The position numbers and the translations under genes were made by a program. Shown in pieces: positions 11,929 through 40,562 of a DNA stretch of 41,492 nucleotides. Source of the stretch: an uncultured Cytophagales bacterium (lineage in GTDB: Bacteria; Bacteroidota; Bacteroidia; Cytophagales; Amoebophilaceae). The notes below the pieces were generated by a model. That model was not told the origin of the DNA. It worked only from the letters and a program-made list of their open reading frames with translations, and ran no database searches. Where the stretch lies: contig CAMEYY010000001.1 in NCBI GenBank assembly GCA_945947725.1, positions 1 to 41,492 of the forward strand. The letters are read 5' to 3'. How positions within the stretch are numbered: position 1 is the first letter of the stretch; every line of letters begins with the position of its first letter.

Positions 11929-13194
11929 ATGAAAAAAGTTGCTTTATTCAAACTTGGATTTTTGACAAGCATGTTATTAAATTGTGGTCTTCAAAATAAT
12001 CAAACTAAGAGATTATCATCTGACAATTTTGGAAATATAAAAAAAGATTTAAAAACTCGCGAAACTTACGTTCAGAGTCAAAATAATCAAAACGACCAAA
12101 AACAAACCTCGACAAAATTAAATCAAACTACATCTGTAACACTTATAGATCTTGAAAAAAAACTTAATGAAAATATACAGGAAATAGAAAATTTAAAAAC
12201 ACAATCTGCTCAACAACAAATAGATTCACAAGCATTGGAAACTCAAAAACAGAAACTTGAAAATTTTACAACAATACTTACAGATAAAGACAATCAGATT
12301 AAAGAATGTCAAACAAAAATAAATCAATTAAAATTAACAATCGAACAACAGAAGAATGATTTACTTCAACAGATTAATGATCAAAAAGAACAAATTGAAA
12401 ATGAAATTAAAAAAAAGGAGAAAAACATAAAAGCATCAGATACTACGGAAGAGTCAAAGGAAGAAAAATCTAAGAAAAAAGAAAAAGCTAAAAAAATTGA
12501 AACTTTACAACAAATCAATGATTTAAATGGAATTACAACTAAAACACAAGAACTTGAAAAACAACTTCAAGCTCAAAGACAAAAACTTACAAATCTTGAG
12601 AACGAATTTAAACAAAAGTTTGAAACTCAGAAAAAACAAATAGAGAGTGATAAAGAAAAATTAGAGACAATAAAAAATTTACAACAACAACAACAGAATA
12701 CAAATTCAGAAAATCTTAACAAGCAAAAAGACGAATTGGAAAAGTTAAAAAAAGAGATTCAGAGTGCAAAAGAAAAGACAACAGTAAAATCAGAGTCTAA
12801 GTGTAAAATATCAAAACAAGAACTTGAAACACTTAAAGCAGAACTTACCGAGAAGATTAATAAAAAAGCTGATCAAACTACTTTAACAGAATTAGAAAAT
12901 ATTATTAAAGAAAAATCAGAGACAATAAAAAATTTACAAAAACAAATTCAAGAACAGCAAGACGCTTTGAAAGATGTGCAAGTTCAAAAACAAAACCTTG
13001 AAAAATTAGAACAAAAACTAAAAGCTAATTTAGAGCAACTAAAAAAAGAATTTACAAAGAACAATAAGGAAAACAAACAAGCAACATCATCTCTGAACGC
13101 ACTTTTAAAACAGCAAACAATATTGGTAAATAATTTCCAACAAGATACTAACGAAAACCTTTCTCAATTGGATACAATAAAAAAAACAATTTGA
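11929..13194 (+). CDS. Q/N/K/E-rich coiled-coil lipoprotein, 5' part of a frameshifted longer gene
   Basis: Signal plus Cys (MKKVALFKLGFLTSMLLNC|G), followed by about 400 aa of heptad-like low-complexity sequence. It terminates just after an A8 run at 13179-13186. Confidence 0.7.
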   Translation: MKKVALFKLGFLTSMLLNCGLQNNQTKRLSSDNFGNIKKDLKTRETYVQSQNNQNDQKQTSTKLNQTTSVTLIDLEKKLNENIQEIENLKTQSAQQQIDSQALETQKQKLENFTTILTDKDNQIKECQTKINQLKLTIEQQKNDLLQQINDQKEQIENEIKKKEKNIKASDTTEESKEEKSKKKEKAKKIETLQQINDLNGITTKTQELEKQLQAQRQKLTNLENEFKQKFETQKKQIESDKEKLETIKNLQQQQQNTNSENLNKQKDELEKLKKEIQSAKEKTTVKSESKCKISKQELETLKAELTEKINKKADQTTLTELENIIKEKSETIKNLQKQIQEQQDALKDVQVQKQNLEKLEQKLKANLEQLKKEFTKNNKENKQATSSLNALLKQQTILVNNFQQDTNENLSQLDTIKKTI

Positions 13195-13753
13195 TCAGTT
13201 TAAACAAGAAACAAAGCAAACATTAGAGTCTTTACAAAAACAAAATACACAACTACAAGGAGAGATTTCGTCAAAACATGAAGAAATACAACAAATTCAA
13301 AAAGTACTTTCTGAAATTAAAAAACAAGGAGAAGAAATTGAAAAACAATTTAAACAAACATTAAATAATGATAAACAATATTTAATAGACAATTTCAGTG
13401 AATCAATAGAAGATATCCAAGATATTCTTGAAGAAAAAGCAGATCAAGATAAGATTAACAAACTTGAAGAGAATCTTAAGGATTCTATTGAAGAAATAAC
13501 AAGGAAGTTACAAAAACAAAATCTTGCAATTATAACTATAAAAAATTATCTTTTAGAAAAATTTTCTTTTTCCCCTTTGAAAAAAGAAAATTTTAAGAAA
13601 AAATTTGCGGATATTGATGAAACTAATATTGTATCACCAAGATTTATACATAATAGTCCTAATGGTTCTCAATCAAATACTAAAACAAAATGTTCACCAT
13701 TATACCAAAGTTCAAGTTTTACTGTAAGTACAAAGAAAGATAACAAACCTTAA
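13187..13753 (+). pseudogene. Out-of-frame continuation of the coiled-coil lipoprotein (188 codons, no internal Met)
   Basis: My translation gives an open frame from 13187 (QFDQFKQETKQTLESLQKQNTQLQGEISSKHEEIQQIQ...KKDNKP, stop at 13751-13753). It has the same coiled-coil character. It is absent from the ORF track only because it has no Met. Confidence 0.6.
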
Positions 13754-13789
13754 AATAACCAAATTATACAGGATATCTATTAAAATTAG

Positions 13790-13915
13790 AACAGAAATTA
13801 GCCGAGCTACAAGATGAAATTACAAAAAATTAGACGCTCTATTAGTTACACTTGAAACTCAAAAAAAAACAACAACAAGATCTTCAACAGAACTAGAAAA
13901 AAAGTAGGAAAAATT
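13790..13915 (+). pseudogene. Decayed fragments of a further coiled-coil paralog
   Basis: Short coiled-coil-like reading frames (LEQKLAELQDEITKN*, KLDALLVTLETQKK...) interrupted by stops and frameshifts at A6 and A9 runs. Confidence 0.4.
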
Positions 13916-14097
13916 ATTTATTCAGAATCCAAATCTTTAATAAACTTTAAACAAAACATAGGATTATAAATTATATACTTTTTTACTAACAAAAGAAATT
14001 AAGATCATATTAATTTCAAAATTTTTGAATATTAATTTTAAATTAATATATTTTTTAATATACATTTTTATGAATTTTTAATAAACGTTGTTATAAT

Positions 14098-15669
14098 ATG
14101 AAACGAACCATTAACTTTTTTAAAATTATATTTTTAACCAATCTACCTTATAATTGTACAGTCAAAGAACCTGATAATGCATGCAATGAAACTTATCAAT
14201 CTCTCAAGAATTTGAAAAAACAAACTTCAATACAGATAGAAGATAATAATGATAGACAAACTCGTAATTTTGATAATTTCAAAAATGATTTTCAAGGGCA
14301 AATCAATAATGTTTTTATGCAACTGGACGAACAAAAAACAACTAATAACAACTTATCAAATGGTATTAAAACACAATTTAAAAAGGAAATAGAAGCACTT
14401 AAAACACAGCTTGGACAACAACAACAAAAGCTTAAACAACAAGATGAGACAATAGAAAAGTTAAATAATGAACTTAAAAATAAAGCTGACAACAATATAT
14501 TAGTTGATTTTGATGATCTTAAAAGTAAACTTAATGATCAAACAAAGGAATTAAATAATCTTAAAACACAACAACAAGAGCTTAAAACACAAAAAGAAAA
14601 TCTTGAAAATAAACTTAATGATGAAATAGATAAATTCAAAAATGAGCTTAATGAGCTTAAAGAAAAACTTATAAAACAAAATACGTCACTTGTAAATCAA
14701 AAAGAGGATATATATGAACAATTCAAAAAGCTAACAGATGATTTTAAAACTAAGTTTGAAGATTTAGCAAGTAAAATTAAAAACGAAAACGAACAAAAAT
14801 TAAACGATGTAACTAACTCAATTGTAAATGATATTAATGAACTAAATAAACAACTTACCGAACTGAGAAATCAAATAACGAGTATGAAATCTAACCTCAG
14901 TGAAAAAGTAGATCAAACCAAAATTGAGGAAATAAAAAAACAAATTCAAAAAGCTCTTAACGAGTACTTAGATGAGAAGGTAAACAATCTAGAAGAAATT
15001 AACACACAACAAAAACAAAAATTAGATGATCAAACAAAGGAATTAGATAATCTTAAAACACAACAACAAGAGCTTAAAACACAAAAAGAAAATCTTGAAA
15101 ATAAACTTAATGGTGAAATAGGAAAATTCAAAGATGAGCTTGATAAGTTTAAAAAACAACTTGACGAACAAAAGAACAATGCTGAATCGTTATTAGAAAA
15201 ACTAAACAAACAAGATGCAGAACTGAATGAACTAAAGAATGCACTTAAGGAAATAAAATTATTAGAAAGTAAAATCGAAGAATTGGGAAAAGACATTAAC
15301 CAACAAAAAGAAGATTTTAATAATCAATTTCAAAAACAAAATGAAACGCTTGGCAAGAAAGCTGACGAAGAGCAGCTTAACAATGAAATAAAACAACGAG
15401 AAGATGCACTTAACAATCAAACACATGATTTGTTTTGTGTTAAGGCTAAGATTTCTAATATATTATTAGGCATTTTGGATCTCTTTAGGAAAGATTTTAT
15501 AGCACTACAAGCAAAAATCAATGCAATACAAACAAATAAAAATAATACGAGTGTTAATCTAAATAGTTTGATGGGAAAAATTGAGGCGTTGGATAAGGAT
15601 CTTCAGAATCTTTTTGAAAGAAAAAAGGAAAATATTTTTGAAAACAGAAATGAAGGAGGTAATGAATAA
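14098..15669 (+). CDS. Q/N/K/E-rich coiled-coil lipoprotein paralog
   Basis: 523 aa, signal plus Cys (..FLTNLPYNC|T), coiled-coil composition. An internal direct repeat of ~110 bp occurs at 14536 and 15028. Confidence 0.7.
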   Translation: MKRTINFFKIIFLTNLPYNCTVKEPDNACNETYQSLKNLKKQTSIQIEDNNDRQTRNFDNFKNDFQGQINNVFMQLDEQKTTNNNLSNGIKTQFKKEIEALKTQLGQQQQKLKQQDETIEKLNNELKNKADNNILVDFDDLKSKLNDQTKELNNLKTQQQELKTQKENLENKLNDEIDKFKNELNELKEKLIKQNTSLVNQKEDIYEQFKKLTDDFKTKFEDLASKIKNENEQKLNDVTNSIVNDINELNKQLTELRNQITSMKSNLSEKVDQTKIEEIKKQIQKALNEYLDEKVNNLEEINTQQKQKLDDQTKELDNLKTQQQELKTQKENLENKLNGEIGKFKDELDKFKKQLDEQKNNAESLLEKLNKQDAELNELKNALKEIKLLESKIEELGKDINQQKEDFNNQFQKQNETLGKKADEEQLNNEIKQREDALNNQTHDLFCVKAKISNILLGILDLFRKDFIALQAKINAIQTNKNNTSVNLNSLMGKIEALDKDLQNLFERKKENIFENRNEGGNE

Positions 15670-15676
15670 TTTTTTA

Positions 15677-18268
15677 TTATATCAATTTTTTTACAAAATC
15701 AACAATTTGAGGAATAAATTTATCTGTTTTTAAAATAGCGATATTAGCATTTCCACCTCCGTGCATACCGGTAAAATTTTCAGAGATCTTTTTTGTTAAA
15801 ACATTAGCCGGAATATCTTTATACGAAGATCCAATACAAATTAAGATATTTTTATTTTCATCCACCATTTCAAAAAGTGATACAACTTCCAGATTTGTCG
15901 CCAAATTATTGAAAATAACACGCAAGAGACCAGACTCCATCAAATCAATTTTTTCAAAAACGAAATTTTTATTATTAATGACTTCAATATCTCTAGCAAA
16001 TTTTTCAGCAAATAATGACGAAATTTTATTTCGATAGTAACCTAATAAATTTTCATGAACAGAATACTCATTCAACATTTTCTTAGTTGCAGATACAGGA
16101 TCTTTTTTATTACAAAGCATCACTCCAATATCAAACAACTGTTTAGAAGAATTTTCATAATAATTTAAAGCAGCAAGACCAGCCACAGCCTCTATCCTCT
16201 TAACACCTCGCGCAATAGTTTCAATATTAATAATTTTACAACAAATAATCTCTTTAGAATTTTTAACGTGCGTTCCTCCACAAAGTTCTATTGAGAAATC
16301 TCCAAATTTTATAACTCGAACTTTATCTCCATATTTATTTTCAAAAAGACACATCGCCCCCATCTTTTTGGCTTCCTCAAAATCAACATTATTCAATTCC
16401 GTTAAAACTAAATCCTCTCGAATCTTATCATTCAAAACTTTTTCAATAGCTTCACGTTTTTCCCCTATCATGTTATCGTTGCAACTAAAATCAAAACGGA
16501 AATATTTATCACAAATATAAGATCCTCTCTGCTCAATTTGATTGCCTAAAACTTTTCGTAAACTTGCCTGTAAAAAATGTGTTGCAGAATGATGAACAGT
16601 TATTAATTTCCTTCTTTCAATGTCGATCTTAGCAAAAACTTCAGAATTAAGATTTTTAGGTAATGTCTCTGTTACAATAAAAATTAAACCGAAAGATTTT
16701 TTAGTATCCAAAACTTCTATTTCTTCTCCATCACAAATAATCACCCCAATATCTCCAACTTGTCCTCCACACTCTCCATAAAAAGGACTATTTTCTAGTA
16801 TTAAATGATAAAAAACTTTTCCAGAACATTCATATTTTCGATATCCTAACAAAGAAGTTTTCGTTTCAAAAGTATCATATCCAATGAAAGTTTGTTTTCC
16901 TGGTTTTACCTCTGTCCAAGATCCTTCTATATCAACAAATGATGTAGCTCGAGATCTTTGTTTTTGTTCTTTTAAAGCCTGATTAAACGATTCTCTATCA
17001 TAAGATAAATCATTTTCTTTCAAGATAAGTTCGGTCAAGTCAGCTGGAAAACCAAAAGTATCATACAATTCAAAAACAACACGCCCATCGATAATAGGTT
17101 TTGAGTTATTCTTTATTATTTCATCCAATTTATAGATTCCTCGACTTATCGTTCGTAAAAAATCTTCCTCTTCTTGTTTGATAAGATCTTGAATGAAAAG
17201 TTGTTTAACTTCTATTTCAGGTTTGATATAACGATATTGAACAACAACATTATTGGTTAAACTATATAAACAAGGTTCTTTCAAATCTAAGAAAGAATAA
17301 CCATACCTTATTGCTCTTCTTAAAATTCTTCTGATAACATATCCTTCTTTAACATTACTAGGAAGAACTCCATCACAAATAGCAACAACCACGGCACGTA
17401 TATGATCGGAGATAACTCGCATTGCAATGTCCACTTTTTTATTAACCCCGTATTTATAATCAGAAATATTTTCAAGGCCGTAGATATATGGCAAGAAAAG
17501 ATCAGAATCATAATTAGATTTTTTATTTTGTAAAATTCTTACAAGACGTTCAAATCCCATTCCAGTATCAACGTAGTGATTATTCAAAAGTTTTAAACTA
17601 CCATCTTTAAGTCTTTCATATTGCATGAAAACCAAGTTCCAAATTTCAATAACTTCTGGATTATCTTTATTTACAAGTTCACGTCCAGGAATTTCTGATA
17701 TATCATCACGTAAATCAACATGGATTTCAGAGCAAGGGCCACAAGGTCCTATTTCTCCCATTTCCCAGAAATTATCTTTTTTATTTCCTAAAACGATATG
17801 ATCTTCAGGGACAATCTTCTTCCACAAATTATAAGCTTCATCATCTTTATCCAGTCCATCTTCTCTCGATCCTCCAAAAACCGTAACATAAATTCTTTCT
17901 TTAGGAAGTTTATAACGCTCTGTTAAAAGTTCATACGACCATTCGATAATTTCTTTTTTAAAATAATCACCGATAGACCAGTTACCCAACATTTCAAAAA
18001 GAGTATGATGATAAGTGTCGACACCAACTTCATCCAAGTCATTATGTTTACCAGAGACTCTCAAACAAAGCTGCGAATTGAAAAGACGTTTGTCGGATAT
18101 AGTTTTATTCCCTAAAAAAATATCTTTAAACTGCACCATCCCAGAATTCGTAAACATGATTGTCGGATCATTCGGTTGTAATATCGAAGACTGAGGTACG
18201 TAGATATGATTTTTACTTTTAAAGAAATCAAAAAAAGTTTGTCTTATCTCTCCGCTGAATGGTATCAT
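15677..18268 (-). CDS. alaS: Alanine--tRNA ligase
   Basis: 863 aa. N-terminus FTNSGMVQFKD, HHTLFEMLGNWSIGDYFK, editing-domain HSATH, and a C-terminal DHHA1-like GGGN. Confidence 0.95.
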   Translation of the reverse strand: MIPFSGEIRQTFFDFFKSKNHIYVPQSSILQPNDPTIMFTNSGMVQFKDIFLGNKTISDKRLFNSQLCLRVSGKHNDLDEVGVDTYHHTLFEMLGNWSIGDYFKKEIIEWSYELLTERYKLPKERIYVTVFGGSREDGLDKDDEAYNLWKKIVPEDHIVLGNKKDNFWEMGEIGPCGPCSEIHVDLRDDISEIPGRELVNKDNPEVIEIWNLVFMQYERLKDGSLKLLNNHYVDTGMGFERLVRILQNKKSNYDSDLFLPYIYGLENISDYKYGVNKKVDIAMRVISDHIRAVVVAICDGVLPSNVKEGYVIRRILRRAIRYGYSFLDLKEPCLYSLTNNVVVQYRYIKPEIEVKQLFIQDLIKQEEEDFLRTISRGIYKLDEIIKNNSKPIIDGRVVFELYDTFGFPADLTELILKENDLSYDRESFNQALKEQKQRSRATSFVDIEGSWTEVKPGKQTFIGYDTFETKTSLLGYRKYECSGKVFYHLILENSPFYGECGGQVGDIGVIICDGEEIEVLDTKKSFGLIFIVTETLPKNLNSEVFAKIDIERRKLITVHHSATHFLQASLRKVLGNQIEQRGSYICDKYFRFDFSCNDNMIGEKREAIEKVLNDKIREDLVLTELNNVDFEEAKKMGAMCLFENKYGDKVRVIKFGDFSIELCGGTHVKNSKEIICCKIINIETIARGVKRIEAVAGLAALNYYENSSKQLFDIGVMLCNKKDPVSATKKMLNEYSVHENLLGYYRNKISSLFAEKFARDIEVINNKNFVFEKIDLMESGLLRVIFNNLATNLEVVSLFEMVDENKNILICIGSSYKDIPANVLTKKISENFTGMHGGGNANIAILKTDKFIPQIVDFVKKLI

Positions 18269-20139: not shown

Positions 20140-21276
20140 ATGAAGTTAGAAATATCATCATCGTCATTGTACAAAAAAATAACGATGCTTGCAGGAGTTA
20201 TCAATGCTAAACCTTTAGTTGCTATATTGGAAGATTTTTTATTCTCTGTCAAAGATAACGTTTTATCTATTACTGCTTCCGATTTACAAACAACGATAAC
20301 GACAAAAATGAAAGTTCAAAACGCTGACGATTTCTCTGTTGCTATACCATCAAGGATTTTATTAGACACATTGAAAAATTTATCAAATCAAAATATTACC
20401 ATAATCTCGGAAGAAAAATGTAACAACATAACTATCAAATCAGATTTTGGTGAATATGTTATCGCTGGCCACAACGCTAATGAATTTCCAACAGTAACCA
20501 TCGATAATAATTTCGAAAACCAATTTACTTTCTCTGGGAAAAAATTAAAACGAGCATTACAAACTTGTTTCCCTATCTCTAGTAACGATGCGCTCAAACC
20601 TGCACTCAACAGTATTTATTTCGATTTTATTGATAATGAATTAATTTGTGTTTCAACAGACATACATAGATTGGTAAAATACGAACTCGTCGACGAAAAT
20701 ATTGCTCAAGCAAAATCTATTATCGTTCCTAAAAAATCTGTTCAACAACTTATCAACCTTATCGATGATGCCGAAGATTTACAAATTACGAATTATAATG
20801 GAAGAGTTTGTTTTTATCTCCATGAAGGAGCAACACAAATCATCGCGTCAACGATAAATGAGAAATTCCCTAGCTACGACACCGTTATCCCTCACAACTA
20901 TGCAAACATAATGACGATTTACCGTTTAGACCTAGTTGCTTCGTTAAAAAGGTTGATGATTTATACCAATGCTGTCTCTCATCAAATTCAATTTTCTATC
21001 GAAGACAACAAACTGACTATTTTAGCAGAGGAAGTTAATTGTGGAAATATGGCTGTTGAAACTATTCCTTGTTCTTATCGTGGTGTTCAACCTATGTCGA
21101 TAATGTTCAACGTTAAAATTTTATTAGATCTTTTGCAAAATATCGACTTCGATGAAATAACTTTTAAATTCTCTGATGTAGATGAAAATGGAAAATCAAA
21201 TAAAGCCGTCGTTATCTCACCAAACTCTGGCGATGAAGAGAAAATTACCTCATTGGTAATGCCTATCTATTCTTAA
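20140..21276 (+). CDS. dnaN: DNA polymerase III beta sliding clamp
   Basis: 378 aa. Typical N-terminus (MKLEISSSSL...VINAKP..ILEDFLF......L.ITASDLQ), three-domain length, C-terminal ..LVMPI. Confidence 0.9.
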   Translation: MKLEISSSSLYKKITMLAGVINAKPLVAILEDFLFSVKDNVLSITASDLQTTITTKMKVQNADDFSVAIPSRILLDTLKNLSNQNITIISEEKCNNITIKSDFGEYVIAGHNANEFPTVTIDNNFENQFTFSGKKLKRALQTCFPISSNDALKPALNSIYFDFIDNELICVSTDIHRLVKYELVDENIAQAKSIIVPKKSVQQLINLIDDAEDLQITNYNGRVCFYLHEGATQIIASTINEKFPSYDTVIPHNYANIMTIYRLDLVASLKRLMIYTNAVSHQIQFSIEDNKLTILAEEVNCGNMAVETIPCSYRGVQPMSIMFNVKILLDLLQNIDFDEITFKFSDVDENGKSNKAVVISPNSGDEEKITSLVMPIYS

Positions 21277-30937: not shown

Positions 30938-31049
30938 TTTTGCAAACTTTACTTTACTTATAGCAATTTTTTGAAGAATAACAGATTATAACATCCTTTT
31001 TTTTAGCTCTACATAGCGCCGTTTATCTAAAAATTAAAAACGAAAAAAA

Positions 31050-31107
31050 TAAGTTTAATTTTACTTGATTAATTCATTTTTGTGTCCGATGCTCTCGGCA
31101 TGAACAA
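31050..31107 (+). repeat. Conserved upstream-plus-start module, copy B (paralog of 38392-38449 on the minus strand)
   Basis: Gapless hand alignment gives 48/58 identical bases. This includes an exact GC-rich 17-mer GCTCTCGGCATGAACAA, with the ATG in the same register. Confidence 0.85.
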
Positions 31108-31276
31108 GAAAAATGTGTTCCTCAATTTATTGAGTATTTATGGGATGACGTTTGCCCAAGGTATAAGGAATACCGAAAATCAAAAGTTAGATTATAACGA
31201 TGTAATAATTAATGTTGATACAGAGCAATTACTAAAGCACGACGAGATGAATGTGTTTTGTGAAGATTGTTCATAG
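31100..31276 (+). CDS. Small 58-aa protein ending in CxxC, paralog of the 18-aa ORF beside the radical SAM gene
   Basis: MNKKNVFLNLLSIYGMTFAQGIRNTENQKLDYNDVIINVDTEQLLKHDEMNVFCEDCS. ATG at 31100, within the track ORF 31082..31276. TAG stop lies 2 nt before the next gene's ATG. Confidence 0.45.
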   Translation: MNKKNVFLNLLSIYGMTFAQGIRNTENQKLDYNDVIINVDTEQLLKHDEMNVFCEDCS

Positions 31277-31278
31277 AC

Positions 31279-32163
31279 ATGAAAAATTTTGATTTTTTTG
31301 TATTAGCCTTAGGTATTTGTAATTTATTTCCTTCTTGTAATTCTCGAAATTATTTAGCTGCAAATTATTCCAATGATGAAAAGTTTAGAGGTGTTCAAAA
31401 TATAACAATCAAAAATGGACCTGGTAATATTACAGTTCAACCTACAGCAGATGCTAATAACGATGAAACGATATTAGAATTAGAGGGTGAAGAGAGAGAT
31501 GAGGTGAATGTTAAGCAAGAAGGTTCCACACTTTTTGTGACGAGGCCAGGTAATCCTAATGAGGTATTATTTTATGCACCAAAACCTATAAATATAACGT
31601 TATACATTGCTCCTACTGTTAACTCTTTACAATGTAAAATGGGACGTGGAAAATTTTCAATGGATAATTTTATTGGGAATTTGAATTTGGAAGGGGGTAT
31701 TAGTGATATTTTTTTGAGAGATATTACAGGGTATATTAACTTAGACACAGGGAAATCCAAATTTAATATCGAAAATATAACCGGAAATATAGATATACAC
31801 TCTGGACCTATAGAACAAGGAAATTTTCAAAGAATATCAGGTAATGTCAACATAAGAGCCTCTCAATTTAATTTAGTTCTTTTTGAGATATTCGGAAATA
31901 TTAATCTAAGAGGTGCTGGGTTGTTGAATTATACAATGTTGACTAAACCAAATTTCCCAATATTTATAACGTTTAAAGGGAAAAATGTTTTTTGCAATGT
32001 TTATTTATCTAACGCTTTTCGCTGTATTGATAATACAATAAAAGGACGTCATAATAATATCTTTTCTATTTTTCCATACGTCTCGGGTATAAGAGCGATA
32101 GGTGATGTAAACTTTTGTGGAAATCTGCATGATAGTACATTGCAAATTCAAAATGTAAATTAA
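31279..32163 (+). CDS. Predicted lipoprotein with beta-helix-like GN(I/L/V)N repeats (DUF4097 / putative-adhesin-like)
   Basis: ATG at 31279 (MKNFDFFVLALGICNLFPSC|N). Repeats of roughly 20 aa: FIGNLNLEGG, ITGYINLDTG, ITGNIDIHSG, ISGNVNIRAS, IFGNINLRGA. Confidence 0.5.
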   Translation: MKNFDFFVLALGICNLFPSCNSRNYLAANYSNDEKFRGVQNITIKNGPGNITVQPTADANNDETILELEGEERDEVNVKQEGSTLFVTRPGNPNEVLFYAPKPINITLYIAPTVNSLQCKMGRGKFSMDNFIGNLNLEGGISDIFLRDITGYINLDTGKSKFNIENITGNIDIHSGPIEQGNFQRISGNVNIRASQFNLVLFEIFGNINLRGAGLLNYTMLTKPNFPIFITFKGKNVFCNVYLSNAFRCIDNTIKGRHNNIFSIFPYVSGIRAIGDVNFCGNLHDSTLQIQNVN

Positions 32164-32611
32164 TTTTTACTTGATTATTTTTTAATTTCTTGCATCTCTT
32201 GGTTTGAATAAGGATTATTTATTCAACATTATCTTCACTGTTCGATAGTCACTATCCTTTTCCTATTTAAAATTTGATACGACTTTTAGTTGAGTAAAAA
32301 CAACTTCAACGTAATAGCAATTGCATTTCTTGTTTATTCACTTTATTGCCCGTTAAAACGATCATGTACGATTTATTCGTTAAGATATCCAACTCTGTGT
32401 TTAAAATTTATAGTTAACATCATAATCTGCATAAATCATTTTTTTATTATAACATCCTTGTTTTTTTGTTAGTTAAAAATTGTCAAATACTATCATCAGC
32501 GTCAATATTTTTCCTCTTCAGAAAGCTCATGAGTTTTACACATTATGAGTCTATATGAAAAACTTTAAGATTTTTCTATTAAAATATTTTAAAATTTTAT
32601 CAACAAAAAAG

Positions 32612-32967
32612 TTATCCACATTTTATAAAAATAGGTCATAATAGACTGACAGATGAGAGGTTTGGTGAAAACGTAAAAAATTAAAATGTGGATAACTTTT
32701 AGAGACCTTCAAAAAATGTGGATAACTTTTTCAAAAATGTGGATAACTTAACAAAAAAATGTGGATAACTTTCCGTTTTTGCGCCCCGGCCGGCCCCGAA
32801 AATCCGCCGGCAATTGAAGGCTTTTGCACGTTTTTGTGGCAAAAAAATAAAAAAATGAAATTTTGATATATTTTTATTATTATAATAATAAAAAAAATTT
32901 TTTCTTCTTATAAGGGGGGTTTGGGGGGAAATTTCTTCTTTTTACATCTTGCAAAAAATGTGGATAA
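32612..32967. other. oriC-like region: six perfect DnaA boxes flanking an AT-rich tract
   Basis: TTATCCACA at 32612-32620. TGTGGATAA at 32687, 32717, 32738, 32760 and 32959, each inside the 16-mer AAAATGTGGATAACTT. Nearly pure A/T runs from about 32841 to 32912. Confidence 0.8.
32781..32811. other. GC island (26/31 G+C) inside the origin region
   Basis: gcgccccggccggccccgaaaatccgccggc, read directly. It contains the self-complementary cores CCGGCCGG and GCCGGC. Confidence 0.9.
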
Positions 32968-33048
32968 CTTAGTTAAAAATGGTATTTTTTCATTTCGTAT
33001 CAAATGTTGATTTTGTAACGTATATTTTTGTTTTATAGGATTTAGGTT

Positions 33049-35409: not shown

Positions 35410-36468
35410 ATGAAAATAAAAAATGTATTATTGGTGATGTTGCCTACAGCTGTTTCTTCATGTGTGATTGAAAAACCTGTTGATTGTAGATGCAAGAAGA
35501 TAGATTATCCTGATGAAAATCTAAAAAAACAGTTAGAAGATATTAAAACAAATTTCGAAAAGGCTAGTAATGGAAATCTTTCAGATTTTATAAAGTTCGA
35601 AGAACAGATAATAGATAAAGTCAAAAAAGAAGACAATCGTATTAAGGATGAGAGCGGTAAACAGTTTACTAAATCTTTAAAGGATGAAAATACCTTGAAT
35701 GATTTAAAAAATAAGTTCGGAAATTTAGGGACTGCGATGTTTTTGGATTCTAATTTAAAGTTTTTCTTAAATCCTGTATATCAGGAAACAAATCGGAAAA
35801 CGAATTTTGTGAATGATTTCTTTAACAAACGTGATGAAATAAATAACAAAATTAATTCTGTTGCATGTAAGGATATAAAGGTTTCGCTTTTTGATGTTAA
35901 AAATTTAAAATTTGACGATTTATCTAAGATTTTTGATTTTGATTATAAATGTCAGGATTTGAATGAATGGTTTAAGTTGGTTTCTCTTTTCGGATATTAC
36001 TCTGTTGAAAATTTATTATTGCCTGTTGAATTTAAAGACGATAACGGAAATAACATCGGTAAAGGTTTCGTTTGTGATGGTTTAAATTGTATTCAGTGGG
36101 GACTTCTTTTTGAAAAGAATGTAAGTGAAGAGCGTCAAGAAAAATGTTTTAATACAATGAAGGAAATCTTTAAGAATGTTGTTTTGAAAGATAACACTAT
36201 TATTTCTAAAAAGATTAGATTCTTCTGTAATGAAAAATCTATTTGGGATAAATTGTCTGCTTTTTATAAAGAAAGTACAGACGAAATGTTTTTTCTTGAT
36301 AAACTTAAGGATTATTCTAAATGGTTTTGCCACTGCTGTTGTTATAACGATATTACCGATGAAAGATTTTTAAATTTTGGCTTTCCTTGTGTAGGCTTTG
36401 CTCAAAGAAATGGTTTATATTGTTGTAATTTTAGTGGTTCTTTAAAAAAATCAGCTACTACTGTCTAA
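35410..36468 (+). CDS. Predicted lipoprotein with Cys-rich C-terminus, unknown function
   Basis: 352 aa, signal plus Cys (..LPTAVSSC|V). The C-terminal ~60 aa contains WFCHCCCYND...FPCVGF...LYCCNFSG. Confidence 0.5.
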   Translation: MKIKNVLLVMLPTAVSSCVIEKPVDCRCKKIDYPDENLKKQLEDIKTNFEKASNGNLSDFIKFEEQIIDKVKKEDNRIKDESGKQFTKSLKDENTLNDLKNKFGNLGTAMFLDSNLKFFLNPVYQETNRKTNFVNDFFNKRDEINNKINSVACKDIKVSLFDVKNLKFDDLSKIFDFDYKCQDLNEWFKLVSLFGYYSVENLLLPVEFKDDNGNNIGKGFVCDGLNCIQWGLLFEKNVSEERQEKCFNTMKEIFKNVVLKDNTIISKKIRFFCNEKSIWDKLSAFYKESTDEMFFLDKLKDYSKWFCHCCCYNDITDERFLNFGFPCVGFAQRNGLYCCNFSGSLKKSATTV

Positions 36469-36542: not shown

Positions 36543-36890
36543 TTAAAACACAAACTTTGACAGTTCAATTAGGATAACTAAAATACCAAATAAAACACAT
36601 AGCTTATCACCAAAATCCATTTGTCGTTTTAATTTTTTTTTCAATAGGTAATAAGGAATAAAGATAACAAATACTGTCGCTATCATCCCACCGAACGAGA
36701 GTATGTTGATAAAGGCATTGGGAATCGCGATACACAAAACAATAGGAATAATACAAACAATAGCACTTGCTACAACCCTTGATTGAGAGATAGTCTCTTC
36801 TATAGATTTTTTCAAACCCAATCCTATACCAATGGTCGACGTTATGATAGCAAATAAACTCAATATTTTGAAAAATATTTCCATATACAT
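36543..36890 (-). pseudogene. C-terminal ~115-aa fragment resembling HAAAP-family (Mtr/TnaB/TyrP-type) aromatic amino acid permeases
   Basis: ..IAIPNAFINILSFGGMIATVFVIFIPYYLLKKKLKR.. parallels the remembered E. coli Mtr C-terminus ..[34 protein letters not shown]... Full-length family members are about 400-415 aa. An in-frame stop lies just upstream of the first Met. Confidence 0.45.
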
Positions 36891-37020: not shown

Positions 37021-38337
37021 TTATTGTTGAGAGAGTAAGTACGCAAGTAACATCTTCTCTTTTAGATTATACCTCGTTGTTGGACAAGGTAGATTTCCAT
37101 CCTGCCACTGTTTTGGGCAAGCTCCTGCACAAGTAGGAAATATCTTACATTTTCTACATGGAGAATCAGCGTCGGTAATCTTTTTAAATTTTTCAAACAC
37201 ATCTCTCGCTCTACATACTCCCATTTCTAAATCACCAATCTGATATTTATGTAAACCATTCTCTATATACGCATCAACTAAACCCACCTCGGAGCAAGGA
37301 AATAGATTGCCTTCAGGATCGGACATTATCGCATGTTCACTAGTATACAAACAACCATATTTTCGTTTTGGCAAAGGTTTCACTCTAAAACCTAGTTCTA
37401 TCAACTTCGACATTGCCTGGATCTCCAAGTTAGCAAATTCTTCTTGTTCTATAGCTTTTTCTCCTGCATCATTACCCCAATCATGAATAGGCGCAAGGTA
37501 AACAAAAAGATTTTTATATCTTTCCAAATGATCTGCATGTAAAATATCTATCAAATGAAAAATCGCCTCGCTATTCCTCATATCGACATTACATCTCAAT
37601 GTTACTTCAACTTCAGGATTATTTTCAACAATTTTCAAAAGACCTTTAAAGTTATTATACACGTCATCAAAAGTTCCTTGTTTCCCTTTCAGACAACGTC
37701 GTGCATTATGTTCTTCTGCGTTACCATCTATTGTTATTCCCCAAAAATTGATCTTGCATTTTTTTACACAAATATTGGCACGCTCCTCTGTTAATAAAGA
37801 AGCATTAGTTGCAATATGAGATACATATTTAACATTTTCTTCTTTACAAAGTTGTATCAATCTTGGAGCTAAACTTTCAATAACATCCAAAGCCAATATA
37901 GGTTCTCCTCCAAACCACCCTAAAAACAACTCTTCAAATTTTTTTGTTTGTAATTTCGTTTTAATATCTTCAAAAATACGATCTTGATTTTCTTTTGACA
38001 GTTTTACATTTTTATGATTTTGTCCACAATAATCACATCCAAAATTACAAGTTCCACTTACCATCACCACATATCTCAACGTCCTATTTACAAGAGTTTT
38101 ATTCTCTTCTAAAATTTCTTTAAACTCATCTACAGTATCGTTAACTAAAAAATCTTCCACGAAAGCTTGAGGTATTTTCTCAAGAGAGTTTCCATTTTGC
38201 AAAATCACGTTAATCTCTTCCCAAAAGACTTTTGAAACAATAGAGAGCTTACTATTCTTAGAATTAAAAATTGCTACTAAATCCTTATTATCTTTACAAA
38301 ACTCAACAGTTTCGACAAAATTCGATATTTTCAACAT
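37021..38337 (-). CDS. Radical SAM / SPASM-domain peptide-modifying enzyme with N-terminal RRE-like extension
   Basis: CNFGCDYC (Cx3Cx2C) at residues ~102-109 of the track ORF. C-terminal SPASM motif CRKCKIFPTCAGACP (Cx2Cx5Cx3C). About 95 aa precede the cluster, with a PqqD-like pattern (LVAIFNSKNSKLSIVSKVFWEEINVILQNGNSLEKI). ATG at 38337 preferred; GTG at 38352 is possible. Confidence 0.85.
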   Translation of the reverse strand: MLKISNFVETVEFCKDNKDLVAIFNSKNSKLSIVSKVFWEEINVILQNGNSLEKIPQAFVEDFLVNDTVDEFKEILEENKTLVNRTLRYVVMVSGTCNFGCDYCGQNHKNVKLSKENQDRIFEDIKTKLQTKKFEELFLGWFGGEPILALDVIESLAPRLIQLCKEENVKYVSHIATNASLLTEERANICVKKCKINFWGITIDGNAEEHNARRCLKGKQGTFDDVYNNFKGLLKIVENNPEVEVTLRCNVDMRNSEAIFHLIDILHADHLERYKNLFVYLAPIHDWGNDAGEKAIEQEEFANLEIQAMSKLIELGFRVKPLPKRKYGCLYTSEHAIMSDPEGNLFPCSEVGLVDAYIENGLHKYQIGDLEMGVCRARDVFEKFKKITDADSPCRKCKIFPTCAGACPKQWQDGNLPCPTTRYNLKEKMLLAYLLSQQ

Positions 38338-38342
38338 TTTAT

Positions 38343-38399
38343 TTATAAACACAAATCACAAAGATCATGTATTCTCGCAAATACACATTCTTTGTTCAT
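38343..38399 (-). CDS. Unannotated 18-aa Cys-rich ORF (MNKECVFARIHDLCDLCL), candidate precursor peptide
   Basis: My translation of the minus strand. ATG at 38399 and TAA at 38345-38343, 5 nt upstream of the radical SAM ATG. Too short for the ORF track. It has a paralog at 31100-31276. Confidence 0.45.
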   Translation of the reverse strand: MNKECVFARIHDLCDLCL

Positions 38400-38449
38400 G
38401 CCGAGAGCGTGAGATACAAAAAAGAATAAATCAAGAAAATATCAACTTA
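38392..38449 (-). repeat. Conserved upstream-plus-start module, copy A (paralog of 31050-31107)
   Basis: See copy B. It runs from the S41 stop codon to the first three codons of the 18-aa ORF. Confidence 0.85.
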
Positions 38450-39772
38450 TTTTTTATTACTTATCAATTCATAAACTTTATCCATCGCATCTTCCGCTTT
38501 AACTAAAATATCTGGAGTTAGTCGAGCAGGATCTTTTGTTGGATCAGGACGGTAAAATTTTTTAAAAGTCGTATGGAAGACCACGTGTGAATTAGGCAAA
38601 GAAAAATCTCCTGTACAATCACCAAAACTTTCCGGTGAATTGCCTGGGACCTCTCCTATGACAGTCGCTAAATTATTGTCGGAAAAATAGTATGCAAATA
38701 TTAATCCACTACTGAAAGTTAAATTAGAAGTCAAAATATAAAAGTTACCATCAAAAAGATTGTCCTTCGACATCCAATTTTTGAGTGCTTCTTCGTTTAT
38801 TTCCTCTTTATTATTTATTATTTTATTTCCATTTCGAACTTCACTTCTTCCACCTAACTTTTTACAATTTGGATATTTTTTTAAGTACTTTATAAAATAA
38901 TTTATAACACAACTATTTCCACCCCTGTTACGCCTCAAATCAACTACGATATTGTTTATGTTATCTTTTGCAACATCGACAAAGAAACCGTCAATCATAG
39001 GTGCGTAATCGGTTCTACAATCGTCCATCTTAAAAATTCCCAAATCATTTTCTTCATCAATGACGTACGACACTGGCGGAGCAGCAGTAAAATGCTTTTT
39101 TCTAAAAATTCTAAAAAATTGTTCCTTAACAATACCTTTATCTGTGTTAAAAGTTATCTCAACAGGCTTTGTCACATCAACACCCGATCGTGCTAAAATA
39201 TCAGCGCTTAAACATTTAGACCTTTCAAAGAAAATAGCATGAGCCCATTCTTCAATTTCATAAGACCAGTGTTGTTTGAAATTTTCATACAATTCAGAAA
39301 TCTTGACCCCGTTAACTTCCATTATCTCCGCGTCTTTAAATCTTCCACTATCACAGAAAATTTTATTACCTATATTACGAGTCTGAAAAGGTAGTTGTTT
39401 ACAATTTAAAAACTTAGGACAATAAGTAACAGAGTGTGCGTCATGTAATTTTTTTAGGATACGAGAAAGTATTTTCCAAACTTCTATAGTACTCGTATGA
39501 TCTTGCAAATTTGCAATTTCAACATCTCTCTGCTGCAAAACTTCTTGAGGTACTTCCTTGATACAACTCATGTGGTGTTGTTTGACTTTATTAATCGCAA
39601 AGTCGATATCTTCTATAACTTGTTGTTTCGTAAAAAATTCATTTTTTTTACTCTGGAGCAGTTTGACAGTCTTTGTCTTTCTTGTTGTCGATGTTTTATG
39701 TTTTATAACAATTCCAATGGAAGTTAAAAGTAATAAAGTAAAAGAGCCTAAGACTTGTTTACTGATTTTCAT
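38447..39772 (-). CDS. S41 family serine peptidase (C-terminal-processing-protease-like), membrane anchored
   Basis: I prefer the ATG at 39772 (MKISKQVLGSFTLLLLTSIGIV). Motifs are VVDLRRNRGGNS and LTSNLTFSSGLIFA (catalytic Ser region). Confidence 0.8.
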   Translation of the reverse strand: MKISKQVLGSFTLLLLTSIGIVIKHKTSTTRKTKTVKLLQSKKNEFFTKQQVIEDIDFAINKVKQHHMSCIKEVPQEVLQQRDVEIANLQDHTSTIEVWKILSRILKKLHDAHSVTYCPKFLNCKQLPFQTRNIGNKIFCDSGRFKDAEIMEVNGVKISELYENFKQHWSYEIEEWAHAIFFERSKCLSADILARSGVDVTKPVEITFNTDKGIVKEQFFRIFRKKHFTAAPPVSYVIDEENDLGIFKMDDCRTDYAPMIDGFFVDVAKDNINNIVVDLRRNRGGNSCVINYFIKYLKKYPNCKKLGGRSEVRNGNKIINNKEEINEEALKNWMSKDNLFDGNFYILTSNLTFSSGLIFAYYFSDNNLATVIGEVPGNSPESFGDCTGDFSLPNSHVVFHTTFKKFYRPDPTKDPARLTPDILVKAEDAMDKVYELISNKK

Positions 39773-39782
39773 AATAATAGTT

Positions 39783-40562
39783 TTAAAAAAGTTTTTTTCT
39801 ATTAACAATTTTTAGATATAAATAAGCAATTAAAATTCCGCAGAGATGGACGAGATGAGCGACATTATCACCAGGATTGGACTGGAAGCTAGCGTGTAAT
39901 TCATACAAACCATAAAAGACGACAAAATATCGAGCTTCGACAGGAATAGGAAATAACAATAAACCTATTTTTGTATGTGGAAATAGGAAAGCGAAAGCTC
40001 CCAAGAGTCCAAAGATAGCTCCAGAAGCTCCAACAATAGGAACATCAAATTTTAACGAACATATGTGTTTTAAAATAGCAATACTTTTATCTACCAATGC
40101 AGGGTTTGTAGCATCATGAGAGAAATCGTAAATGAACTCATAATATGCATTGTACATCAACTCGTAATGATTTTTCAGAAAATTGCTAAAGAGTTCAGGT
40201 GTAGGATTTAAAATGTATTGATTATAAAAATCCAAATTAGCATTTCCGAAATACAGGTATACAAGATATAAAATCGAAGCACCGATTCCTGCTGTAAGGT
40301 AAAGACCAGTAAATTTTTTCGATGATAAGGTATTTTCTAAAATAGGTCCAAAAGTACACAACGTAAGCATGTTACTAAAGAGATGTGAAAAGTTAGCATG
40401 GACGAAGAGATGTGTTAAAATTTGGTACGGTCTAAAATAATTTGAGTGTAGATCTCGCAGCCCAAAAATACGGATGAGATCTATATGCAAGAAACTCGTC
40501 ACCAGGTAAACACACAGATTGATGATGAGAATTTTTTTGACGACAGGACTTAACTTAAACAT
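39783..40562 (-). CDS. Rhomboid family intramembrane serine protease
   Basis: 259 aa, polytopic. HLFVHANFSHLFSNM, catalytic GASGAIFG, and AHLVHLCG. Confidence 0.85.
   Translation of the reverse strand: MFKLSPVVKKILIINLCVYLVTSFLHIDLIRIFGLRDLHSNYFRPYQILTHLFVHANFSHLFSNMLTLCTFGPILENTLSSKKFTGLYLTAGIGASILYLVYLYFGNANLDFYNQYILNPTPELFSNFLKNHYELMYNAYYEFIYDFSHDATNPALVDKSIAILKHICSLKFDVPIVGASGAIFGLLGAFAFLFPHTKIGLLLFPIPVEARYFVVFYGLYELHASFQSNPGDNVAHLVHLCGILIAYLYLKIVNRKKLF

Follow-up and report, generated by a model that had tools for sequence, protein, structure and literature searches.

Does the short ORF that lies immediately in front of a radical SAM (rSAM) maturase gene in an uncultured Cytophagales bacterium encode the substrate of that enzyme? 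The question comes from an original prediction made on a 41,492-nt stretch of contig CAMEYY010000001.1, which we term the window and whose relevant features are collected in Table 1. On the minus strand the text reads GCTCTCGGC ATG AAC AAA GAA TGT GTA TTT GCG AGA ATA CAT GAT CTT TGT GAT TTG TGT TTA TAA ATAAA ATG, the last triplet being the start of the rSAM gene at 38337, 5 nt beyond the stop codon of the ORF. The 18-residue product has three Cys (C5, C14 and C17), the latter two in a C-terminal CxxC; the N-K-E-C at residues 2-5 is a fortuitous NxxC that lies outside the homologous core. The original prediction was correct as to the sequence and coordinates of the ORF, its three Cys, the terminal CxxC and the 5-nt distance to the rSAM start. 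The gap behind the S41 peptidase stop, which it gave as 94 nt, has this length if counted to an in-frame GTG at 38352, but measures 109 nt to the true ATG. That GTG, which had been offered as a possible start of the rSAM gene, was rejected on the N-terminal conservation of the rSAM relatives, whose proteins begin MLKISNF, MFKVSYF or MVKISRF (MLKLSxY as the wider family consensus); the start is the ATG at 38337.

ATG-initiated ORFs of at least 18 aa were found in 21% of dinucleotide shuffles of the 109-nt gap, and such ORFs with at least 3 Cys in 2.8%; the window as a whole holds 183 ATG ORFs of 18-40 aa. Taken alone, the 18-codon ORF is within chance. Its homology to peptide genes is beyond chance. 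A search of the S41-rSAM gap against Rfam gave no match.

Table 1. Coordinates of the maturase gene, the peptide genes and their surroundings in the window
Feature	Position	Strand	Remarks
5' element of the intact copy	31040..31099	plus	counterpart of 38400-38458; 92% identical to L003 copy 2 over 73 nt
Intact 58-aa precursor paralog	31100..31276	plus	MNKKNVFLNLLSIYGMTF...HDEMNVFCEDCS; all four invariants (G15, N51, C54, C57)
DUF4097-like (toastrack) predicted lipoprotein	31279..32163	plus	ATG 2 nt after the peptide stop
Truncated peptide-gene 5' element, 22 nt	32156..32177	plus	20/22 identical to L003 copy 2; directly after the DUF4097 stop
RRE-rSAM-SPASM peptide maturase, intact, 438 aa	37021..38337	minus	Pfam Radical_SAM and Fer4_12
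Spacer ATAAA, 5 nt	38342..38338	minus	between the relic stop and the rSAM ATG
18-codon relic ORF	38399..38343	minus	product MNKECVFARIHDLCDLCL, then stop; ATG at 38399, TAA at 38345-38343
Conserved 5' element	38400..38458	minus	common to all peptide-gene copies, intact or relic
S41 peptidase	38447..39808	minus	upstream neighbour of the relic

Of a precursor gene of about 58 codons, the ORF retains the 7 at the start and, behind a junction of about 2 codons, the final 9 with the stop. Its 5' part (64-82 nt, comprising about 60 nt upstream and the first ~20 nt of the ORF) is 79-84% identical to the paralog at 31100 and to relatives, with E values of 1e-8 to 1e-15. When the 3' 30 nt are anchored at the stop codon, 18-21 of them are shared with the full-length genes (shuffle p 0.0004-0.01). 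In the codon alignment, ATA CAT GAT CTT TGT GAT TTG TGT TTA TAA of the relic (I-H-D-L-C-D-L-C-L) stands against ATG AAT GTG TTT TGT GAA GAT TGT TCA TAG of the full-length gene (M-N-V-F-C-E-D-C-S). MAFFT placed the middle of the relic on the hydrophobic segment of the family instead; this gave about 44% identity, against 63-70% for the stop-anchored alignment, and was rejected.

Relatives with similar rSAM genes carry earlier stages of the same gene. In L002, whose rSAM is 81% identical, a full-length peptide gene (...KKNVFLNLLSIYGMTFSSSVKSIENQKLDYDDNVIMSVDTEQLLRNEEMNVFCENCS, with the C-terminus ...EEMNVFCENCS and its first two codons missing at the contig end) stops 5 nt before the rSAM ATG. 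The sister clade (rSAM ~89% identical; six contigs, L001, L088, L089, L090, L105 and L106) has at this place a 30-codon ORF, MTKKNVFEMIYVANQKFDCNVDNCFGIFCL, that shares the stop (TGT TTA TAA) and the 5-nt distance to the rSAM gene. The 18-codon ORF corresponds to this 30-codon relic minus one 36-nt in-frame deletion; 39 of 57 positions are identical, a value equalled by 0 of 20000 shuffles. Net deletions were in frame at both steps (84 nt, then 36 nt), and erosion went stepwise from about 58 to 30 to 18 codons. Thus DNA homology to an intact family is combined here with loss of essential parts, and there is both an intact ortholog at the same position (L002) and an intact paralog in the same genome (31100-31276), as expected of a pseudogene. 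The suggestion in the original prediction that the ORF might be a decayed copy of the 31100 paralog is strongly borne out by the homology at both ends and the stepwise deletions. Its other suggestion, a maturase substrate, fares poorly, the 18-aa sequence being conserved in no relative beside the same rSAM. The 18-codon form is found in a single genome only, relatives having 30-aa, full-length or frameshifted versions; there is no other contig with it because the members of the rSAM 90% cluster are all only 87-94% identical to the window protein.

Decay is seen in other copies as well. The rSAM-adjacent copy in L003 (rSAM 77% identical; positions 1862-2002) has an 8-nt deletion and ends ...EMNIVCDQYT, with Tyr for the second Cys; it appears by sequence to have decayed independently. 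Another degenerate precursor, protein P0174, ends ...EMNVFCEAYS, again with the second Cys changed to Tyr. Searches of the window for further relic or intact copies (blastn-short, tblastn) found only those at 31100 and 38399 and the 22-nt scar at 32156-32177. A degenerate pattern of the 5' junction, TCGGCATGAMMAARRAANNTNTNTT, had 13 matches metagenome-wide, all of them attributed to chance from unrelated upstream sequence, GC content and peptides.

The losses of the relic become plain by comparison with the intact family. Four positions are invariant among 11 aligned peptides: G15, which belongs to the hydrophobic N-terminal segment, and N51, C54 and C57. The relic lacks the hydrophobic, signal-peptide-like N-terminal segment and G15, only the MNK..VF of the first 7 codons being left, and the leader of about 30 residues, including a conserved I/V-x-V/I-D/N-T before the core, is absent, with about 2 relic residues in its place. 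Both the hydrophobic segment and the leader are present in 11 of the 11 aligned members. In the core, the relic retains C14 and C17 as a C-x-x-C in register with the stop codon, and has His11 (AAT to CAT) at the position of an Asn, three residues before the first core Cys, that is invariant in all 11 and also in 59-aa variants of the peptide. The sister 30-codon relic kept this Asn and has Gly at the first core Cys.

The 18-codon form is known as one copy, and selection was counted on the 30-aa sister relic. Within the sister clade, its differences are 4 non-synonymous (K3N, M9I, A14V and Q17K) and 0 synonymous, compared with 20 non-synonymous and 30 synonymous in the adjacent rSAM gene (Fisher p 0.034). 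The sister-clade relic is under relaxed constraint (4 differences, p 0.034). Intact peptides have dN/dS of 0.11-0.26 against their orthologs and the rSAM 0.06-0.11; the rSAM and the intact copy at 31100-31276 are under purifying selection.

The enzyme has an rSAM motif CxxxCxxC (C97, C101 and C104) and SPASM cysteines (C394, C397, C403, C407 and C418) that are all invariant. Its best NCBIfam matches, all full-length, were TIGR04463 'rSAM_vs_C_rich' (200.7 bits), Clo7bot (169), CefB (135), FlmE/OhkG (121) and PapB (107). These scores are far below the respective cut-offs of 525, 600, 600, 500 and 340 and place the enzyme outside all these named maturase families; TIGR04463 has no mention in the searchable literature. 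An AlphaFold model (pLDDT 90.7) has an N-terminal beta-sheet and three helices as in peptide-recognition (RRE) domains. The best structural match of the model, over the full length including the N-terminal domain, is PDB 5why/5wgg (TM ~0.65), entitled 'thioether bond formation in the biosynthesis of sactipeptides', and the best PDB sequence match is likewise 5wgg/5why (E 1.8e-9, 18-19% identity). Maturases that depend on an RRE are expected to need the leader of their substrate, and the RRE-like N-terminal domain of the model, together with its full-length match to 5why/5wgg, suggests that this enzyme would be leader-dependent. Without the parts that RRE-dependent recognition would be expected to use, and with His at the invariant Asn, the relic is very probably not a productive substrate. 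Position and Cys content had originally been held to fit a maturase substrate, a view that finds no support for this ORF, given the loss of about 40 family codons and the His for Asn exchange.

Close relatives of the rSAM were found at 89, 81, 77, 63, 44 and 40% identity. A scan of reference genomes with the rSAM alignment gave nothing above 36% identity, and the lineage of the window is therefore not among the species representatives scanned. In the lineage at 63% identity (L104, 1-1258), the rSAM gene is apparently broken: a frameshift, accompanied by two stops, disrupts it close to the N-terminus, and CNFGYNYC stands in place of the radical SAM motif CNFGCDYC. By sequence, the entire peptide/maturase system seems to be decaying in that lineage. 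MnmG assigns the window to an uncultured lineage of Cytophagales, being 83% identical to that of a 'Cytophagales bacterium' MAG and about 60% to those of Amoebophilus, Chryseolinea and Fulvivirga. GC content is about 31%, and a GldH gene is present in the sister clade.

The intact peptide encoded at 31100-31276, 7 kb from the relic, is most likely the real substrate, judging by its sequence; its core contains N-V-F-C. The public gene call for this precursor (31082-31276, protein P0157) uses an upstream GTG and is 64 aa long (MSDALGMNKK...). The family alignment and the conserved ...TCGGC-ATG junction argue that the true start is the ATG at 31100, giving 58 aa. The exact 58-aa sequence is absent from the protein collection searched. 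The DUF4097-like gene that follows is 40% identical to its L003 ortholog (E 1e-58).

The organization of relatives suggests how the peptide genes and the maturase came to be separated. In L003 the order is peptide, DUF4097-like gene, peptide, peptide, truncated peptide, rSAM. Contigs L005, L006 and L007 and two Caedibacter MAGs (L008 and L009) have 1-2 peptides of 60-68 aa, a DUF4097-like gene of 217-236 aa and an rSAM gene. Just upstream of the relic in L001, positions 1083-1131 match window 32133-32181; this match and the copy at 32156-32177 appear to be scars of formerly contiguous peptide, DUF4097, peptide copies and rSAM. Sister contig L088 shares the gene order of the window (peptide, DUF4097, origin-like region, H+-PPase, ..., rSAM, relic), and the split of the cassette is therefore older than the divergence of the two clades. 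Intact 59-aa copies (…HDEMNVFCEDCR) are also kept elsewhere in the sister clade. In L107 (10001-10180) and L108 (4201-4380), an intact 59-aa peptide gene adjoins ddl in the orientation opposite to that of the window, and no DUF4097 gene follows it. Rearrangements near the origin seem to concentrate on the peptide genes and the repeated 5' elements that go with them. The peptide family is a small one: the 29 proteins retrieved bear either no name or the label 'hypothetical', and by sequence the cassette appears to be an uncharacterised variant of thioether-type rSAM/SPASM RiPP systems.

More distant rSAM relatives (~30-36% identity) occur in cyanobacteria, Nitrobacter, Planctomycetes, Chitinophaga, Runella and Chryseobacterium. 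These genes are preceded by one to four tandem peptides in which NxxC is repeated (NVACGSGNNKGCPVSNTSCGP, NTGCQNSGCGG, NVACDSGC and NLACNSGC), at loci among L008-L087 such as L048 4795-5926, L019 5436-5916 and L028 5671-5892. Some of the peptides have GG-type leader ends and some signal-peptide-like N-termini. None of 80 distant rSAM loci had upstream a peptide with the exact C-terminal C..C; other NxxC arrangements were found instead. This distant NxxC-type family appears to be large and unnamed.

Between the rSAM gene and the intact peptide and DUF4097 genes lies an origin-like region. The non-coding stretch 32164-33048 has at least 6 copies of TGTGGATAAC / GTTATCCACA within 32600-32970 (DnaA-box consensus TTATCCACA), at about 32611, 32688, 32717, 32738, 32760 and 32959; cumulative GC skew is lowest at ~28-32 kb, and a homologous region is present in L088 at 12489-12885. 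The 32600-32970 region is, on this sequence evidence, probably a chromosomal replication origin. A GC-rich oddity, gcgccccggccggccccg, lies at about 32775-32800. Downstream of the rSAM gene, the sister clade has thyA, gldH and an intact permease of 379-402 aa, which are absent there in the window. A 115-aa ORF of the window (36543-36890, minus strand) covers no more of a Trp/Tyr permease than its C-terminal quarter (profile positions 272-371 of 393); the permease fragment and the missing thyA and gldH fit local gene loss and rearrangement. In place of the missing genes the window has a plus-strand ORF at 35410-36468, which encodes a Cys-rich protein of 352 aa (...CHCCCYNDITDE...) with no Pfam or NCBIfam match. 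Elsewhere in the window, positions 12001-16000 are of unusual composition (GC 0.25, AT skew +0.26 to +0.39), and two large plus-strand ORFs at 11929-13194 and 14098-15669 have no Pfam match above curated cut-off; they give only weak matches, to Baculo_PEP_C and Apolipoprotein, which have the appearance of coiled-coil hits.

On the other side of the relic, the S41 peptidase was considered as a leader protease of the system, a link that the original prediction had implied, and was rejected. The sister clade has DnaN upstream of its relic (the window DnaN is at 20140-21276), and L003 has peptide genes and DUF4097 there. By gene order, the S41 peptidase is a lineage-specific neighbour that stands outside the system. 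The end of its gene (...AAT AAA AAA TAA, 38447-38458, minus strand) lies within the element AAAAAATAAGTTGA, and the position of its stop (38447-38449) inside the conserved 5' element marks a rearrangement junction, at which the S41 frame just runs into the element.

The 5' element at 38400-38458 is 79-84% identical to that at 31040-31099 and to the copies in L003 and L001. With identities of 84-92%, the 5' element is far more conserved than rSAM synonymous sites, which are near saturation in the same genomes (pS 0.39-0.65). The element is the only obvious upstream signal now left for the rSAM gene, and we predict that it is probably the promoter and short leader of that gene, a promoter function that we infer. 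The element had no conserved RNA fold (-1.5 kcal/mol, no covariation). A sigma-70 promoter scan gave 7 matches against 8.0 expected, with a model unsuited to Bacteroidota, and an exact Bacteroidota-type TAnnTTTG motif was sought in the element by eye and not found.

We consider it highly likely that the 18-codon ORF represents a RiPP precursor gene reduced to a pseudogene-like relic; on this reading the maturase most likely acts on the intact copy, and the 5' part of the relic is probably kept for expression. The ancestor would have had at least one peptide gene of about 58 aa in a cassette with the DUF4097-like lipoprotein and the RRE-rSAM-SPASM maturase. The ancestral peptide would have begun with a hydrophobic, signal-peptide-like segment, continued with a leader and closed with an (E/D)(M/W)N-x-x-C-x-x-C core, and 5 nt would have separated the last peptide gene from the maturase ATG. 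In the common lineage of the window and the sister clade, this last copy would have lost the hydrophobic segment and most of the leader, leaving a 30-codon stump, from which the window genome would then have lost 12 more codons to reach 18. The maturase would most likely act in trans on the 31100-31276 peptide, encoded beside the DUF4097 gene across the origin-like region, and, by analogy to NxxcB and CteB, would probably link a core Cys in a thioether, with the Asn of the N..C motif as a possible partner. The relic may persist since its 5' element would serve the rSAM gene as promoter and leader, and its frame, if translated, would leave ribosomes only 5 nt short of the rSAM start.

That the ORF arose by chance in an AT-rich 5' UTR and is unrelated to any peptide gene is next to impossible. 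ORFs of similar size are common, both in the shuffles and in the window, but both ends of this one have significant DNA homology to the peptide family and the intact gene of L002 has the same position and spacing, which refutes the chance reading. The relic might be a minimal substrate, with a leaderless or short-leader core cross-linked via C14/C17 or via the N-terminal N-K-E-C. It is directly upstream of the rSAM gene at the ancestral 5-nt spacing, has three Cys, retains the CxxC and has an NxxC at residues 2-5; its ORF stayed open, and NxxcB tolerates several acceptor residues (see below). This tolerance means that the change of Asn to His is no proof of inactivity, and the persistence of the open frame could mean that the relic peptide still matters. 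Yet the relic has neither leader nor hydrophobic segment and has His at the invariant Asn, and the enzyme has an RRE-like domain. Its sequence is unconserved, the sister 30-aa version being without the first core Cys and showing only non-synonymous polymorphism, and an intact paralog under purifying selection exists. We therefore regard a minimal functional substrate as very improbable. We give equally little credence to a related form of the idea, in which a leaderless peptide (N-K-E-C ... C-D-L-C) would be bound or modified by the maturase as substrate or decoy.

A different role is compatible with the relic reading and extends it: the pseudogene may have been exapted as a sequence-independent upstream ORF, or 5' leader, that is kept to couple or tune rSAM translation. 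The distance between the stop and the rSAM ATG is 5 nt not only in the window but also in the sister clade (spacer GTACA) and in L002 (AAAAA, behind the intact peptide gene); both net deletions were in frame; and the amino-acid sequence was free to vary. The ATG, the open frame and the stop were kept in both lineages, for which the neutral probability is ~0.08-0.11 per lineage and ~0.01 jointly under a crude drift model that ignores indels and assumes the relic to be older than the lineage split. No Shine-Dalgarno sequence precedes the relic ATG or the rSAM ATG, and the genes of the region are likewise without one. The locus thus has what marks an upstream ORF, namely a stop within a few nt of the downstream start and a frame that is open across lineages. 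L003 is a counter-example, since its adjacent copy is frameshifted and its rSAM is nevertheless intact. In addition, the sample is small, the A-rich context before the rSAM ATG could allow independent initiation, and the stop and ATG overlap sequence possibly constrained for other reasons. A coupling role of this kind is a possibility that we hold tentatively, with somewhat more doubt than belief; the reading of the ORF as a precursor relic is the one we prefer.

In itself the 18-codon relic is of an ordinary kind, a decaying duplicate of a precursor gene. Its recognition averts a false positive, since the ORF is not to be counted as a RiPP precursor in genome mining, and points to the real substrate gene 7 kb off, which gene callers extended from an upstream GTG or missed. 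It also exposes an uncharacterised and unnamed RiPP cassette, shared by an uncultured Cytophagales lineage and Caedibacter MAGs, that consists of a signal-peptide-like N-x-x-C-x-x-C peptide, a DUF4097-like lipoprotein and a CteB-like rSAM/SPASM enzyme. Turnover of precursor copy number and decay are visible in intact, 30-codon, 18-codon and frameshifted forms, and in the broken maturase of one lineage. With promoter-like element, start, frame and stop retained, the stump offers a small testable case of a dead gene as an expression signal.

Among known systems, the closest in peptide motif is the streptococcal RaS-RiPP maturase NxxcB with its substrate NxxcA. NxxcB forms a beta-thioether from Cys to the Asn beta-carbon of NxxC (PMC9389541); the Cys is strictly required by it, whereas the acceptor may also be Ala, Gln or Asp (PMC9389541). 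Here the likeness is one of peptide motif and enzyme class rather than of sequence compared with NxxcB, and the chemistry is predicted by analogy. In keeping with the NxxC motif of NxxcA, the intact family peptides have an invariant N-x-x-C, followed by x-x-C at the C-terminus, and their maturase is an rSAM/SPASM enzyme; the peptides beside the distant rSAM relatives repeat NxxC (NTGCQNSGC, NVACDSGC and NLACNSGC). Unlike the NxxcA/NxxcB system, the hosts here are Gram-negative (Cytophagales and Caedibacter-like), the N-termini are signal-peptide-like and there is a DUF4097 partner gene. The core of the relic reads H-D-L-C and has thus lost the Asn of the core motif. Sec-type N-terminal signal peptides are rare among bacterial RiPP precursors, as noted for the bufferins (PMC11626156). 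The intact peptides have a similar-looking N-terminus, for example MKNFLAIISAVGIVAITEAQA in L008, as judged by appearance. The bufferin enzyme is an MNIO whereas the enzyme here is an rSAM/SPASM protein, and the likeness concerns the intact family only, the relic being without that segment.

For the enzyme, the nearest comparison is 5wgg/5why, which we take to be CteB, the maturase of the SCIFF peptide CteA. The two share the same domain order, and CteB is a thioether-forming RRE-rSAM-SPASM enzyme. They differ in substrate, with an N..C..C core here and a six-Cys SCIFF peptide for CteB, and their identity is only 18-19%. As for the relic, decayed and duplicated precursor genes are found in RiPP clusters as part of the general pseudogenisation of reduced genomes. 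The 18-codon ORF is like them in that it has an internal deletion, is short of invariant residues, shows relaxed constraint as counted on its sister-clade form and has an intact paralog at another site; the permease fragment in the window is a further sign of such decay. It is unlike the usual decayed precursors in that start, frame, stop and spacing to the downstream gene were kept in two lineages, a hint that it may have taken on a second role, in gene expression.
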